64,000 nt of DNA, taken from assembly GCF_003018235.1 (NCBI RefSeq), contig NZ_CP027437.1, one strand, 5' to 3'. Made by a program: the position numbers and the translations under genes. This DNA comes from Escherichia coli. GTDB taxonomy: Bacteria > Pseudomonadota > Gammaproteobacteria > Enterobacterales > Enterobacteriaceae. Position 1 is the first letter of the stretch. Each line of letters opens with the position of its first letter. The notes beneath the pieces were generated by a model that worked only from the letters and a program-made list of their open reading frames with translations, did not search any database and had not been told where the DNA came from. Shown one piece after another: positions 2,917 to 31,070 of this stretch.

Positions 2917-3900
<984 letters not shown>

Positions 3901-25422: not shown

Positions 25423-26349
25423 ATGAATTATTCTTTAAAACAATTAAAGGTTTTCGTCACAGTAGCGCAGGAGAAAAGTTTTAGTCGTGCAGGAGAGCGT
25501 ATCGGCCTGAGCCAGTCGGCAGTGAGTCACAGTGTGAAGGAGCTGGAAAATCATACTGGTGTTCGCCTGCTGGACAGAACCACGCGTGAAGTGGTGCTTA
25601 CAGATGCAGGGCAGCAGTTGGCTTTGCGTCTTGAGCGACTGCTGGATGAACTTAACAGCACGTTGCGCGATACCGGGCGTATGGGGCAACAACTGAGCGG
25701 AAAAGTTCGGGTCGCTGCCAGCCAGACCATTTCCGCGCATCTTATTCCGCAATGCATTGCTGAAAGCCATCGCCGCTATCCAGATATTCAGTTTGTCCTG
25801 CACGATCGTCCGCAGCAGTGGGTGATGGAAAGTATTCGCCAGGGAGATGTCGATTTTGGCATCGTCATCGATCCAGGCCCAGTGAGCGATCTGCAATGTG
25901 AAGCGATTCTTTCCGAGCCTTTCTTCTTGCTTTGCCATCGCGATAGCGCTTTGGCCGCGGAAGATTATGTACCCTGGCAGGCATTACAGGGAGCGAAATT
26001 GGTGTTGCAGGATTACGCGTCAGGCAGCCGACCGCTGATTGACGCAGCGCTGGCGCGCAATGGTATTCAGGCGAATATTGTGCAGGAGATTGGTCATCCG
26101 GCGACGCTGTTCCCGATGGTAGCCGCAGGCATCGGCATCAGTATTCTTCCCGCACTGGCGCTACCATTGCCTGAAGGTAGCCCACTGATGGTAAAGCGCA
26201 TTACGCCGGTGGTGGAACGCCAGTTGATGCTGGTGCGCAGAAAGAACCGTTCACTTTCCACCGCCGCACAAGCGTTATGGGACGTGGTACGAGGCCAGGG
26301 CCGTGCGCTAATGGCTGGGCGGGAAGGGGAGCCGCTGTATCAGATATAG
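25423..26349 (+). CDS. yfeR: LysR-family transcriptional regulator
   Basis: 308-aa ORF with N-terminal HTH; divergent from yfeH. Confidence 0.85.
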
Positions 26350-26357
26350 AGCTATTC

Positions 26358-26380
26358 ATACTGCCGGGAGCCCCGGCAGT
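26358..26380. terminator. GC hairpin between convergent yfeR and yfeN (no clear U-tract)
   Basis: CTGCCGGGAGCCCCGGCAG. Confidence 0.35.
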
Positions 26381-26386
26381 AATCAA

Positions 26387-27151
26387 TCAGAAATTAAATT
26401 TGATGGAGTAGATTATTGCATCCTGGTAAAAATCTTCGCCCAGTTTGTCATCCGCATAACGATACTGAATCCCTGTGGTGATGTGTGAAGTTGCATTCCA
26501 CCAAAGTGCGACGGCACCGTTCAGACCTTCTTTGCCGCCATTACCTGCCGCGTAGGTGGCATCACGATCAAACTCGTACTCGTTCCAGTTGGTGAGGGTG
26601 AATTTCTCATTGCCCAGCATAAAGCTGTAACCTGCAACCCAACCGGCTACATAGCCGTTGTCGCCAGTGTAATAGGTTTGATCTGTATAACGCTTAGCAA
26701 AGAACGGTTTGAACCACCAACCGCTGCCGGTGAAATTGTAGCCGATCCCGTAAAGGAACATATCGTCATGGAAATTCACACGATTCGCAGAACCGTAGGT
26801 GCCATACGCATGCAAGTAGAGATTAAATCCGGTGTCACCCAGGTAAATACGGTTGGTATTTTTAAATGTATAACGCTGCTCGCTACCCGGTTTATCATGA
26901 CGATCATTATAAAAGTTTTCCCAGTCGAAGAACCCGTACATTTCTCCCCAACTAAAGTTAGCGCCGCCTTCCAGTTCCAGATATCCAAAATCATCTTTGT
27001 GTGATTTGGTCGACGATTTCTCAGTGGTTCTGCTAGTCCAGTCAAGATAATGAATACCTATATCAGCAAAACCGCCTTTAAATTCTGCATGGGATACTGC
27101 TGGTATCGCCAATACAGAAGAGAGTGTCAGAGTAAAAAGATGTTTTTTCAT
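26387..27151 (-). CDS. yfeN: outer-membrane beta-barrel protein YfeN
   Basis: 254-aa ORF with signal peptide, aromatic-rich, C-terminal F. Confidence 0.85.
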   Translation of the reverse strand: MKKHLFTLTLSSVLAIPAVSHAEFKGGFADIGIHYLDWTSRTTEKSSTKSHKDDFGYLELEGGANFSWGEMYGFFDWENFYNDRHDKPGSEQRYTFKNTNRIYLGDTGFNLYLHAYGTYGSANRVNFHDDMFLYGIGYNFTGSGWWFKPFFAKRYTDQTYYTGDNGYVAGWVAGYSFMLGNEKFTLTNWNEYEFDRDATYAAGNGGKEGLNGAVALWWNATSHITTGIQYRYADDKLGEDFYQDAIIYSIKFNF

Positions 27152-27399
27152 AGCATAATTCCCTATGCCGATCGTTATTAGTTGATTGCTTAATAAAAAG
27201 GTTGATTAAAAGCGGCATATTGTTAATGCAAGGGAAAGGAGAGTACCAATACAGTTTTTTCAGCCTATTAATAGTGAAAAAATATAAATATATCGATATC
27301 GAATAACTATCGGATACAAGAAAAAAGTGTATTGGTATGAGGTAGGGCAATCTCGTTATAAAAAGGCGTTAGATTCCACCCTACAAAAAAAGGATATAT

Positions 27400-28233
27400 A
27401 TGTCTCAGGCTCAGTTTTCTCATAACCCACTGTATTGCGTAGATATTATCAAGACTTATAAACCTGATTTCACGCCACGAGTGGCCTTTATTTTAGGTTC
27501 CGGGCTGGGCGCGCTGGCCGATCAGATTGAGAACGCGGTCGCAATTTCCTACGAAAAGCTGCCTGGGTTCCCGGTAAGTACCGTACACGGTCATGCGGGT
27601 GAGCTGGTGCTGGGTTATCTTCAGGGGGTGCCAGTGGCGTGCATGAAAGGTCGCGGACATTTCTACGAAGGTCGTGGGATGACCATCATGATGGATGCAA
27701 TCCGTACCTTTAAGTTGCTGGGCTGCGAGTTGCTGTTCTGCACCAATGCGGCTGGCTCACTGCGTCCTGAAGTGGGGGCCGGCAGTCTGGTCGCATTGAA
27801 AGATCACATCAACACCATGCCGGGAACGCCGATGGTGGGTCTTAATGATGAACGTCTTGGTGAGCGCTTCTTCTCGCTGGCGAATGCCTACGATGCGGAA
27901 TACCGCGCACTGTTACAAAAAGTGGCGAAAGAAGAGGGGTTCCCTCTGACGGAGGGCGTGTTCGTCTCGTATCCGGGTCCGAATTTCGAGACTGCGGCGG
28001 AAATTCGCATGATGCAAATTATTGGTGGGGATGTTGTTGGTATGTCTGTGGTGCCTGAGGTTATTTCTGCTCGCCATTGCGAACTTAAAGTCGTTGCGGT
28101 CTCTGCGATTACCAACATGGCGGAAGGTTTAAGCGATGTGAAATTGTCACATGCGCAAACGCTGGCGGCTGCGGAGCTCTCTAAGCAGAACTTCATCAAC
28201 CTTATTTGTGGCTTTCTGCGCAAAATTGCCTGA
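27400..28233 (+). CDS. xapA: xanthosine phosphorylase (PNP family)
   Basis: 277-aa ORF MSQAQFSHNPLYCVDIIKTYKPDF... Confidence 0.93.
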   Translation: MSQAQFSHNPLYCVDIIKTYKPDFTPRVAFILGSGLGALADQIENAVAISYEKLPGFPVSTVHGHAGELVLGYLQGVPVACMKGRGHFYEGRGMTIMMDAIRTFKLLGCELLFCTNAAGSLRPEVGAGSLVALKDHINTMPGTPMVGLNDERLGERFFSLANAYDAEYRALLQKVAKEEGFPLTEGVFVSYPGPNFETAAEIRMMQIIGGDVVGMSVVPEVISARHCELKVVAVSAITNMAEGLSDVKLSHAQTLAAAELSKQNFINLICGFLRKIA

Positions 28234-28292
28234 GAAAAACAATAAGAAACGGCCTCGCGGGTGAGGCCAAATGATGCGACAAGGAAACGATT

Positions 28293-29546
28293 ATGAGCAT
28301 CGCTTTGCGCTTAAAGGTAATGTCCTTTTTGCAATATTTTATCTGGGGGAGCTGGCTGGTTACCCTCGGTTCTTACATGATTAATACCCTTCATTTCACC
28401 GGCGCTAATGTTGGCATGGTTTACAGTTCCAAAGGGATCGCCGCGATTATTATGCCTGGTATAATGGGGATCATCGCAGACAAATGGCTGCGTGCAGAAC
28501 GTGCATACATGCTGTGTCACCTGGTGTGTGCAGGCGTACTTTTTTATGCGGCATCCGTAACTGATCCGGATATGATGTTTTGGGTGATGTTAGTCAATGC
28601 GATGGCGTTTATGCCGACTATTGCGTTATCGAACAGCGTCTCTTATTCCTGTCTTGCCCAGGCAGGGCTTGACTCGGTGACCGCTTTCCCGCCCATTCGC
28701 GTTTTTGGTACGGTGGGGTTCATTGTCGCCATGTGGGCAGTAAGCCTGCTGCATCTGGAATTGAGTAGTCTGCAGCTGTATATCGCGTCCGGTGCGTCAT
28801 TGCTGCTGTCGGCTTATGCGCTGACTTTGCCGAAGATTCCGGTTGCGGAGAAAAAAGCGACTACATCGCTTGCCAGCAAGCTGGGTCTGGATGCCTTCGT
28901 GCTGTTTAAAAATCCACGCATGGCTATCTTTTTCCTCTTCGCCATGATGCTGGGCGCGGTGCTGCAAATTACCAACGTTTTTGGCAACCCGTTCCTGCAT
29001 GATTTCGCCCGTAATCCTGAGTTTGCTGATAGCTTCGTGGTGAAATACCCGTCCATTTTACTGTCAGTTTCACAGATGGCTGAAGTCGGTTTCATTCTGA
29101 CGATACCGTTCTTTTTGAAGCGTTTCGGTATTAAAACCGTCATGCTGATGAGTATGGTGGCGTGGACGCTGCGCTTTGGCTTCTTCGCCTATGGCGATCC
29201 GTCAACAACCGGATTTATTTTGCTGCTGTCGATGATTGTTTATGGCTGTGCATTCGATTTCTTCAATATTTCTGGTTCGGTATTTGTCGAACAGGAAGTT
29301 GATTCCAGCATTCGTGCCAGCGCGCAGGGCCTTTTTATGACGATGGTAAATGGCGTCGGCGCATGGGTTGGCTCGATTCTGAGCGGTATGGCAGTGGATT
29401 ACTTCTCGGTGGATGGCGTAAAAGATTGGCATACCATTTGGCTGATGTTTGCAGGGTATGCTCTTTTCCTCGCAGTGATATTTTTCTTTGGGTTTAAATA
29501 TAACCATGACCCTGAAAAGATAACGCATCGTTCAGTTACACATTAA
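28293..29546 (+). CDS. xapB: xanthosine permease (nucleoside:H+ symporter family)
   Basis: 417-aa polytopic ORF downstream of xapA. Confidence 0.92.
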   Translation: MSIALRLKVMSFLQYFIWGSWLVTLGSYMINTLHFTGANVGMVYSSKGIAAIIMPGIMGIIADKWLRAERAYMLCHLVCAGVLFYAASVTDPDMMFWVMLVNAMAFMPTIALSNSVSYSCLAQAGLDSVTAFPPIRVFGTVGFIVAMWAVSLLHLELSSLQLYIASGASLLLSAYALTLPKIPVAEKKATTSLASKLGLDAFVLFKNPRMAIFFLFAMMLGAVLQITNVFGNPFLHDFARNPEFADSFVVKYPSILLSVSQMAEVGFILTIPFFLKRFGIKTVMLMSMVAWTLRFGFFAYGDPSTTGFILLLSMIVYGCAFDFFNISGSVFVEQEVDSSIRASAQGLFMTMVNGVGAWVGSILSGMAVDYFSVDGVKDWHTIWLMFAGYALFLAVIFFFGFKYNHDPEKITHRSVTH

Positions 29547-29598
29547 AAGGATTCGCAGCTCTGTTCCTTGGGGCTGCTTTTATGATAAAGGTTAATTA

Positions 29599-29757
29599 GT
29601 GAAAGATATTTTATTTTCTTCTGGCGTTGGTTTTGGCATTGGTGCTTTGTTTACAATCGTGCGCTTGCCTATTCCTGTACCAAATGTATTACCGGGTATA
29701 TTATCCATTGTGTTTATGTATGTCGGATATCTGGTGGTGAAATACTTTATGCCATGA
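29599..29757 (+). CDS. small hydrophobic protein (52 aa, GTG start), possibly XapX/DUF1427-like
   Basis: Manual translation: (M)KDILFSSGVGFGIGALFTIVRLPIPVPNVLPGILSIVFMYVGYLVVKYFMP-stop; AAGG 8 nt upstream; absent from ORF track (<60 aa, non-ATG). Confidence 0.45.
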   Translation: MKDILFSSGVGFGIGALFTIVRLPIPVPNVLPGILSIVFMYVGYLVVKYFMP

Positions 29758-29797
29758 TAATTTAATACGATGTATTTATTATATGGAGCACTTAATT

Positions 29798-30682
29798 ATG
29801 GAACGCGTATACAGAACAGATCTTAAGTTGCTCCGTTATTTTCTTGCCGTAGCGGAAGAGTTGCATTTTGGTCGCGCAGCAGCGCGTTTAAATATGTCTC
29901 AGCCTCCGCTCAGCATTCATATTAAAGAGCTGGAAAATCAACTCGGCACGCAGCTTTTTATTCGCCATTCGCGCAGCGTCGTACTGACACACGCGGGCAA
30001 AATCTTGATGGAAGAATCGCGTCGATTGCTGGTGAATGCAAATAATGTATTGGCTCGGGTTGAACAAATAGGTCGGGGAGAAGCAGGGCGGATTGAACTC
30101 GGGGTTGTGGGAACGGCAATGTGGGGACGGATGCGCCCGGTTATGCGGCGATTCCTCAGGGAAAATCCTAACGTTGACGTTCTTTTTCGCGAAAAGATGC
30201 CCGCGATGCAAATGGCCCTGCTGGAACGACGTGAACTCGATGCCGGAATCTGGAGAATGGCGACAGAACCACCGGCAGGTTTTACCAGCTTACGGTTGCA
30301 TGAATCGGCGTTTCTGGTGGCGATGCCTGAAGAGCATCATCTCTCATCATTTTCCACCGTTCCGCTGGAAGCGCTACGTGACGAGTATTTTGTTACAATG
30401 CCGCCCGTGTACACTGACTGGGATTTTTTGCAGCGAGTTTGCCAGCAGGTGGGATTTTCACCGATTGTTATTCGCGAAGTTAATGAACCGCAAACGGTAC
30501 TCGCCATGGTCAGTATGGGTATTGGTATCACATTGATAGCGGACAGCTACGCGCAGATGAACTGGCCCGGTGTCATATTCCGTCCGCTCAAAGAACGCAT
30601 CCCGGCAGACTTATATATTGTTTATGAAACGCAGCAGGTGACGCCCGCGCTGGTTAAACTGCTGGCGGCGTTGGCGCAGTAG
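29798..30682 (+). CDS. xapR: LysR-family activator of xapAB
   Basis: ORF track 29783..30682; ATG at 29798 gives 294 aa starting MERVYRTDLKLLRYF. Confidence 0.92.
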   Translation: MERVYRTDLKLLRYFLAVAEELHFGRAAARLNMSQPPLSIHIKELENQLGTQLFIRHSRSVVLTHAGKILMEESRRLLVNANNVLARVEQIGRGEAGRIELGVVGTAMWGRMRPVMRRFLRENPNVDVLFREKMPAMQMALLERRELDAGIWRMATEPPAGFTSLRLHESAFLVAMPEEHHLSSFSTVPLEALRDEYFVTMPPVYTDWDFLQRVCQQVGFSPIVIREVNEPQTVLAMVSMGIGITLIADSYAQMNWPGVIFRPLKERIPADLYIVYETQQVTPALVKLLAALAQ

Positions 30683-30713
30683 ATGAGAGGCACGGGAACG
30701 GCCGGACATAGTT

Positions 30714-30740
30714 GGTCTGATAAGCGAAGCGCATCAGGCA
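30714..30740. repeat. REP element
   Basis: GGTCTGATAAGCGAAGCGCATCAGGCA. Confidence 0.6.
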
Positions 30741-30761
30741 ATTTCGCAAATTGCAGATAGC

Positions 30762-30789
30762 AAAAAAGCGCCTTTAGGGCGCTTTTTTA
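30762..30789. terminator. bidirectional intrinsic terminator (tRNA operon and xapR)
   Basis: AAAAAAGCGCCTTTAGGGCGCTTTTTT. Confidence 0.75.
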
Positions 30790-30792
30790 CAT

Positions 30793-30868
30793 TGGTGGGT
30801 CGTGCAGGATTCGAACCTGCGACCAATTGATTAAAAGTCAACTGCTCTACCAACTGAGCTAACGACCC
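30793..30868 (-). tRNA. lysV: tRNA-Lys (anticodon UUU)
   Basis: Reverse complement reads GGGTCGTTAGCTCAGTTGGTAGAGCAGTTGACTTTTAATCAATTGGTCGCAGGTTCGAATCCTGCACGACCCACCA. Confidence 0.95.
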
Positions 30869-30872
30869 GAAG

Positions 30873-30948
30873 TGGTGGGTGATGACGGGATCGAACCGCC
30901 GACCCCCTCCTTGTAAGGGAGGTGCTCTCCCAGCTGAGCTAATCACCC
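30873..30948 (-). tRNA. valY: tRNA-Val (anticodon UAC)
   Basis: Reverse complement reads GGGTGATTAGCTCAGCTGGGAGAGCACCTCCCTTACAAGGAGGGGGTCGGCGGTTCGATCCCGTCATCACCCACCA. Confidence 0.95.
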
Positions 30949-30994
30949 ACTTCGGTACTTCACATTGCTACAAGAAATTTAGCTGGCGAGAAAG

Positions 30995-31070
30995 TGGTGG
31001 GTGATGACGGGATCGAACCGCCGACCCCCTCCTTGTAAGGGAGGTGCTCTCCCAGCTGAGCTAATCACCC
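30995..31070 (-). tRNA. valX: tRNA-Val (anticodon UAC)
   Basis: Identical 76-nt copy. Confidence 0.95.

Follow-up and report, generated by a model that had tools for sequence, protein, structure and literature searches.

Hairpins comparable to the one considered here occupy the intercistronic spacers of engineered tunable intergenic regions, and in the iscRSUA operon a structure between iscR and iscS takes part in a differential decay of the message that is controlled by RyhB and Hfq. The 3' protective structure of malE-malF has been described together with conserved protective structures found genome-wide in E. coli (Dar and Sorek, PMC5927463), and the same source describes the papBA model, in which a hairpin lies at the 5' end left after RNase E cleavage, and lists the iscRSUA operon (PMC5927463). 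The xapAB genes are established as one operon (Seeger et al. 1995, cited in PMC7205307) and have served as a minimal model for an inducible switch consisting of a transporter plus an enzyme, for which the models set [XapA] = [XapB] (PMC7205307).

The stem-loop between xapA and xapB is an uncharacterised case of the well-known intercistronic stem-loops that tune operons and, the device being so familiar, its presence will not surprise a specialist. A literature search found no paper on it among the searchable papers. Its structure is kept across enterobacterial genera while its sequence changes, and the T-tails that flank it vary from one lineage to another.

The xapA-xapB spacer and its hairpin

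The window analysed here is a stretch of 64,000 nucleotides of E. coli DNA (contig NZ_CP027437.1 of assembly GCF_003018235.1), in which xapA and xapB are assigned, from annotation and spacing, to one transcription unit; the identities of the genes are backed by the RefSeq annotation of a 99.8%-identical record (NZ_CP122768.1) and of K-12. Read 5' to 3', the gap between the two genes (Table 1) is GAAAAACAATAAGAAAC-GGCCTC-GCGGGT-GAGGCC-AAATGATGCGACAAGGAAACGATT. The earlier note had placed a GGCCTC-gcgggt-GAGGCC hairpin in this 59-bp gap, and it lies exactly there, 17 nt past the xapA stop and 24 nt 5' of the xapB start; the spacer of K-12 MG1655 has the same sequence, with the hairpin at NC_000913.3 2,524,010-2,524,027. 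The stem is made of six Watson-Crick pairs, five of which are G-C, and closes a 6-nt loop, and one more pair (G28257.U28262) is possible, which would give a 7 bp stem with a CGGG tetraloop.

Table 1. Positions of the features discussed, numbered from the first letter of the window
Feature	Position	Strand	Remarks
Hairpin TACTGCCGGG-AGC-CCCGGCAGTA	26359-26381		10 bp, -17.5 kcal/mol; between convergent yfeR and yfeN; no T-tail on either strand
xapA CDS	27400..28233	+	xanthosine phosphorylase; ORF list, RefSeq annotation
xapA stop TGA	28231-28233	+	sequence
xapA-xapB gap	28234-28292	+	59 nt
A-rich tract GAAAAACAATAAGAAAC	28234..28250	+	12 A of 17
Perfect (AAN)5	28235-28249		AAA AAC AAU AAG AAA
Hairpin with T-rich tail, terminator-like	28234..28269	-	consensus scan (28269..28250, tail TTTCTTATTG)
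Intercistronic stem-loop	28251-28268	+	sequence, fold, comparison
5' arm GGCCTC	28251-28256		
Loop GCGGGT	28257-28262		
3' arm GAGGCC	28263-28268		
Out-of-frame ATG-ATG	28271-28276	+	4 nt past the SD-like GAGG of the hairpin 3' arm
37-codon ORF	28271-28384	+	from the ATG-ATG; overlaps the xapB start; probably spurious
xapB Shine-Dalgarno AAGGA	28281-28285	+	12 nt past the hairpin, 7 nt 5' of the ATG
xapB CDS	28293..29546	+	xanthosine/H+ symporter; ATG at 28293
Hairpin GCAGCTCTGTTCCTTGGGGCTGC then TTTTATGATA	29555..29587	+	right after the xapB stop; terminator-like scan, d = -2.9, borderline
DUF1427 ORF	29599-29757	+	52 codons, GTG start; small hydrophobic protein; between xapB and xapR
Hairpin A6-GCGCC-TTTAG-GGCGC-T6	30762-30788		symmetric; between xapR and the minus-strand tRNA genes

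The hairpin taken alone has a predicted stability of -10.6 kcal/mol and is included in both the minimum free energy fold and the centroid of its 76-nt context on either strand. In 8/1000 and 6/300 (dinucleotide-preserving) shuffles of the gap, one hairpin of this stability or greater was formed. Perfect hairpins with a stem of 6 bp or more and no fewer than five G-C pairs number 23 in the 64-kb window, or about 0.02 expected per 59 nt. The z-scores of the whole-context fold are unimpressive, at -0.67 (plus strand) and -1.32 (minus strand). On its own, the hairpin is only modestly improbable, suggestive rather than remarkable, and what lifts it above the level of chance is that its structure, and not its sequence, is kept in other genera. 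The xapB Shine-Dalgarno sequence is unpaired in the fold, so the hairpin does not sequester it, and the CAAGGAA block to which it belongs is kept across genera.

An Rfam scan of 26000-31000 at E <= 10 gave no match overlapping 28200-28300, and the only features to pass the gathering threshold in that interval were tRNAs at 30796-30948. A REP/BIME or other mobile repeat could be set aside, as the element is single-copy: the window contains one exact copy of the hairpin, with another match carrying two mismatches that is at chance level, each E. coli genome carries one copy of the spacer, and the stem sequence changes between genera at a fixed locus, unlike the consensus copies of REP/BIME.

Upstream of the hairpin lies a strongly A-biased tract that contains a perfect (AAN)5 run, a feature that the earlier reader overlooked, and the segment from stop codon to hairpin averages 61% A and 21% T over 37 spacers from different lineages. 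The run resembles the ARN motif recognized by the distal face of Hfq, and at least three consecutive A-R-N triplets in single-stranded RNA near a start codon, the (ARN)n pattern looked for in Hfq-regulated messages, are present here as a match in sequence. In the window alone an AAN run of this kind was equalled in 133/2000 composition-matched shuffles, which is not significant, whereas ARN-triplet runs summed over 25 lineages, which are not independent of one another, came to 62 as against 45.5 +/- 3.2 in composition-matched shuffles. The run also places an in-frame TAA four codons past the TGA stop of xapA, and similar CAATAA or AATAAT periodicity is seen in other genera; the triplet periodicity may simply be that of TAA back-up stop codons. 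The RNase E motif RN|WUU (as defined in PMC5927463) does not occur in the tract, there being no WUU in 28234-28250.

Several neighbouring elements were noted in passing. The hairpin that follows xapB, with arms GCAGCTC...GGGCTGC, is probably the terminator of the xapAB transcript; in K-12 the stem is longer (GCGGCTCTG/CAGAGCTGC) and its wobble pair sits at another position, so the structure of this stem is kept between the alleles. Beyond it, 3' of xapB, come the small DUF1427 ORF, then xapR, then minus-strand tRNA genes. The DUF1427 ORF is annotated by RefSeq in other E. coli, and K-12 has an intact and nearly identical copy at about 2,522,510-2,522,670 (complement) of NC_000913.3, where no such CDS is among the features listed. 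The symmetric hairpin between xapR and the tRNA genes is terminator-like on both strands (d = +19.8 and +15.7 on the scale introduced below). XapB has 417 residues in the window, with one Leu fewer in a Leu run at about residue 310, as compared to 418 in K-12 and in the 99.8%-identical strain ETEC1738.

The spacer across enterobacterial genera

One genome per species with XapA was scanned, giving 80 loci, about 60 of which have xapB directly downstream. The comparison covers at least 37 distinct xapA-xapB spacers that bear a hairpin. They come from about 12 genera, including Escherichia, Pseudocitrobacter, Klebsiella, Citrobacter, Enterobacter, Silvania, Huaxiibacter, Lelliottia, Atlantibacter, Phytobacter and Chimaeribacter, and hold 28 different hairpin sequences. 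The arrangement is the same throughout: the spacers are 50-74 nt long and in all of them a GC-rich hairpin comes after an A-rich stretch, while in most genera the hairpin ends 20-27 nt 5' of the xapB ATG. The stem arms encountered are GGCCTC/GAGGCC, ATGGCCTCG/CGGGGCCAT, GACCCCG/CGGGGTC, GTGGCCC/GGGCCAC, CTGTGGCCC/GGGCCACAG, AAGGCTCC/GGAGCCTT, ACCGCTCCG/CGGGGCGGT, GGCCCCTG/CGGGGGCC and GCCTCGC/GCGGGGC. In 16 of 17 lineage representatives, the observed stability was matched by no more than 6/300 shuffles; the lineages, being related by descent, are not independent of one another phylogenetically, and choosing the best hairpin of each spacer biases the comparison toward structure. The Escherichia stems align without gaps and in the same register with those of Klebsiella and Citrobacter, and between E. 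coli and these two genera there are two double-sided compensatory changes, one from G-C to A-U and the other from U-A to C-G. The idea, put forward in the earlier note, that the hairpin is functional gains support from this conservation with changed stems.

These counts come from shuffle tests carried out lineage by lineage and from direct tabulation, which were used in place of pair counts from an alignment or a covariance model. A MAFFT alignment of the spacers was unusable for counting pairs, as it left the Enterobacter stems one column out of register. A covariance model built from seven in-register hairpins found those of Escherichia, Klebsiella and Citrobacter, missed most of those of Enterobacter, and matched both strands of palindromic hairpins as well as unrelated terminators.

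Of 4075 E. coli records, 2443 have the identical spacer. In the diverged B2-type alleles sampled, the only changes to the hairpin are compatible with its structure (a G.U pair that becomes A-U, a 1-nt insertion that gives an 8 bp stem, and a C to U change that gives U.G), while these same alleles differ in the loop, in the A-tract and at the base that follows the stem. A rare allele of the CP52E type, found in 16 records, has its 5' arm replaced and the hairpin lost. The hairpin is also absent from Buttiauxella, where the gap is 43 nt, and from Cedecea, where it is 28 nt, and has decayed in K. indica; it must therefore be dispensable in some backgrounds.

The scan also turned up spacers of quite different construction. 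In Yersinia and Budvicia (L062-L074) the gaps are 135-153 nt long, with a longer hairpin right after xapA followed 3' by a kept block, GAGGGAA ... TTCCCTCGACGC, which is an inverted repeat about 35 nt apart and lies ahead of the xapB homologue. Limnobaculum (L022, L028) and Pragia (L038) have gaps of 98-116 nt, at locus positions of about 3335-3450, in which a mini-ORF preceded by a Shine-Dalgarno sequence lies 5' of a short hairpin; the start of this ORF is kept (MSVLMKLSV... or MSALMGLSV...), and it may encode a leader peptide or small protein. The xap locus of E. coli as a whole (window positions 27350-29800) is itself variable, as 2358 records are just 90-95% identical to it over 2.4 kb and 11 are at 60-80%. 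The most diverged of the alleles examined (NZ_CP075731.1), 75.5% identical over a 260-nt query, has a gene for an extra nucleoside permease and one for a nucleoside 2-deoxyribosyltransferase upstream of xapA, and is without both the DUF1427 ORF and the hairpin. A seeming copy of the locus on a plasmid was left out of account, the record being of poor quality and full of frameshifts.

Terminator-like tails and the role of the hairpin

Both strands were scored with a d'Aubenton-Carafa-type discriminant, d, with approximate constants; as an internal calibration, the six T-tailed hairpins in the window gave d = +8 to +47, and the remaining hairpins were negative. On the plus strand the 10 nt past the stem are AAATGATGCG, with two T and no T-run (nT = 0.39, d = -53), and the consensus terminator scan of this strand did not list the xap hairpin. 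As there is no U-tract on the sense strand, the hairpin is not a full sense terminator, which is what the earlier note had expected from the missing T-run; its suggestion of a partial terminator is unlikely to hold in E. coli itself, where sense termination by the hairpin is most likely absent. On the minus strand, the (AAN)5 tract becomes a T-rich tail (GTTTCTTATTGTTTTTC), and the tail that follows the hairpin, GTTTCTTATTGTTTT, has nT = 3.48 and a borderline d of +3.3. The minus strand presents a borderline intrinsic terminator-like site for antisense transcription, which the earlier reader, who considered one strand, overlooked; the corresponding site is stronger in E. albertii, Enterobacter and several Citrobacter.

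When the 37 spacers are compared, the hairpin is the constant and the tails are the variable. Fifteen spacers are terminator-like on the minus strand only (the main Escherichia alleles, E. albertii, all Enterobacter and some Citrobacter), five on the plus strand only (two Citrobacter, Silvania, Klebsiella grimontii and Enterobacter ENT03), three on both strands (C. youngae and C. werkmanii) and 14 on neither (other Klebsiella, C. amalonaticus, Huaxiibacter, Lelliottia, Chimaeribacter, Atlantibacter, Phytobacter and others), so that d exceeds zero on the minus strand in 18/37. This points to the hairpin itself, and not to termination on either strand, as the part that matters. The G.U wobbles make the sense hairpin the more stable in seven distinct variants and the antisense hairpin in two, an asymmetry of G.U over C.A that leans to the sense strand and is not significant (p = 0.18).

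It is this pattern of a constant hairpin with tails that vary by lineage that leads us to favour, tentatively, a role for the hairpin in the decay or processing of the sense mRNA, of the malE-malF type. Acting in cis in the bicistronic xapAB message, after transcription, the hairpin would mark a boundary of decay or processing: once the xapB part of the message had been cut, 3'-to-5' exonucleases such as PNPase and RNase II would stall at the hairpin, and the segment encoding XapA, the soluble enzyme, would outlive that encoding XapB, the membrane transporter. We infer, then, that the sense strand is the one on which the hairpin acts, that it does so by blocking exonucleases, and that the XapA:XapB ratio is affected as a consequence. 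Of the suggestions in the earlier note, an RNA stabiliser that sets the xapA:xapB ratio is still the likeliest hypothesis.

Two features looked for in 3' protective structures are found here, namely a stable stem-loop directly 3' of xapA within a polycistronic mRNA and its conservation in related species, and the order of the genes, soluble enzyme and then membrane transporter, fits the logic of malE-malF decay and is for this reason counted in favour of a decay element. The tract upstream of the hairpin is unstructured. As a barrier to exonucleases the K-12-type stem is at the weak end, and the strong A bias of the upstream tract is better explained by antisense termination or Hfq binding, both considered below, than by a pure 3' barrier. 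Neither xapA nor xapB has entries in the searchable Term-seq, differential-decay, Hfq-CLASH and EPEC RIL-seq supplements, some of which may be incomplete and which come from cultures in standard media without added xanthosine; this is expected, since the operon needs xanthosine for its induction.

It is possible, if unlikely, that the hairpin is instead a one-way intrinsic terminator for antisense transcription, in which the minus-strand hairpin followed by GUUUCUUAUUGUUUUUC would stop transcripts coming through xapB before they reached xapA and the xapA promoter, while sense polymerases would pass. The consensus scan does list the minus strand, where d is positive as against a strongly negative value on the plus strand, E. 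albertii (ATTTTTTTATTGTTT, d = +30) has a textbook-like site, as do all Enterobacter (d about +25), and the A:T ratio of the upstream tract is kept at 3:1. Against such a terminator, no antisense sigma-70-like promoter with at least nine of 12 matches lies between the hairpin and xapR, the best reaching 8/12, and a published Term-seq supplement has a Rho-dependent 3' end antisense to, and just inside, the 3' end of xapR, which shows that read-through from the tRNA operon is already halted 2.4 kb before the xap hairpin. The searchable Term-seq supplements, for which the operon was uninduced, have no 3' end at the hairpin itself. Moreover, 14/37 spacers carry the hairpin with a T-tail on neither strand, the tails in Klebsiella are poor, the sense G.U pairs of several variants are C.A mismatches on the antisense strand, and the E. 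coli score is borderline on a discriminant with approximate constants.

A bolder reading, somewhat less probable again, would be a direction-selective valve within the operon: a conserved terminator that works on antisense transcripts only and is transparent to sense transcription, possibly leaving a hairpin and U-tail on the antisense RNA to which Hfq could bind, and which different lineages would tune by moving the side on which the T-tail lies.

Three other explanations appear improbable. The first is a partial terminator or pause site on the sense strand, an attenuator from which a fraction of the polymerases would continue into xapB. Sense T-runs with d > 0 do follow the corresponding hairpins of Citrobacter (GGGGTCTTACTTTTTTGG), Silvania (GGGGTCATTTTTTGCGG), Klebsiella grimontii and Enterobacter ENT03, which suggests that the element can work as, or derives from, an intercistronic terminator, and for Citrobacter and Silvania a sense attenuator is likelier than for E. 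coli. A canonical terminator requires a U-tract, though, and the Escherichia alleles sampled have 3' flanks of AAATGATGCG, ATATGATGCG or similar, with nT of 0.4-1.5 and d of -20 to -53; Enterobacter is without a U-tract as well.

A second, and equally doubtful, explanation is that the hairpin belongs to the initiation of xapB translation, whether as a 5' protective hairpin of the papBA type after RNase E cleavage or as part of a docking site for Hfq, together with (AAN)5, that would bring xapB alone under the control of an sRNA. The distance of 20-27 nt from the end of the hairpin to the xapB start in most genera would suit such a role, as would the match of (AAN)5 to the Hfq ARN motif and a periodicity that exceeds that of the shuffles when lineages are summed. 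Yet the nearest RN|WUU is in the last codons of xapA, and after cleavage there the new 5' end would lie 26 nt from the hairpin; the A-tract itself has none; the Hfq-CLASH and RIL-seq supplements, again with the operon uninduced, have no xapA or xapB rows; and the run in the window is within what composition alone can produce and has the back-up stops as a possible explanation.

The last is that the hairpin is a neutral remnant, for instance of a bidirectional terminator that decayed after serving a once-separate xapA and xapB and that spread by descent and horizontal transfer. The loss of the hairpin without replacement in several lineages and in the CP52E-type allele would be in keeping with this, and the xap locus does move horizontally (PMC2395238), so that shared ancestry inflates the apparent conservation; nonetheless, a neutral helix of 6-10 bp should have decayed among sequences as diverged as these, in which XapA identity falls to 77%, and what is observed is 28 hairpin sequences whose stems are kept through compensatory or wobble changes while loops and flanks drift. 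A gSELEX peak for RNA polymerase with RpoN and NtrC has been assigned to the xapA-xapB spacer (K-12 old coordinate 2,522,072; PMC8743547), and a sigma-54 promoter at the spacer was considered and rejected, the best -24/-12 matches within 27900-28600 being 6-7/11.

Likeness to known systems

With its GC-rich stem of 6-7 bp, its short loop and a T-rich tail on the minus strand, the xap hairpin resembles an intrinsic terminator, and the homologues in Citrobacter youngae and C. werkmanii, which have T-tails on both strands, resemble a bidirectional one. It differs in its location, between co-directional genes within an operon, and in having no U-tract on the sense strand in E. coli, and we know of no transcript that ends at the xap hairpin on the antisense strand. 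With the papBA message and the engineered tunable regions it shares a hairpin in the spacer, next to a single-stranded stretch rich in A/U and 5' of the ribosome binding site of the distal gene; unlike papBA, it has no RN|WUU directly 5', and the benefit to the distal gene that would be expected from such an arrangement fits an order of enzyme and then transporter less naturally. In iscR-iscS the structure between the genes shields the first cistron while the cistrons beyond it decay, as may putatively be the case for xap, and an A-rich, ARN-like tract near the start of the distal gene is common to both, whereas to our knowledge no sRNA targets xapB.

Were the decay element that we favour to be real, a conserved element that uncouples XapA from XapB would change the assumption that [XapA] = [XapB], and the operon would offer a compact natural example, 18 nt long, of the tuning of operon stoichiometry. 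A constant hairpin with a T-tail that is sense, antisense, on both sides or on neither according to genus also amounts to a small natural experiment, and the pattern of the tails bears on how a terminator, a decay barrier and an antisense insulator may change into one another.

The system that comes closest to the reading we prefer is malE-malF. There two REP repeats make up the element, which is far larger and present in many copies, in contrast to the unique 18-nt element of modest stability in xap. The likeness lies in the arrangement: in both, a stem-loop follows a promoter-proximal gene for a soluble protein and a gene for a membrane protein comes next in the same transcript, no U-tract is needed, and the structure is kept in related enterobacteria.
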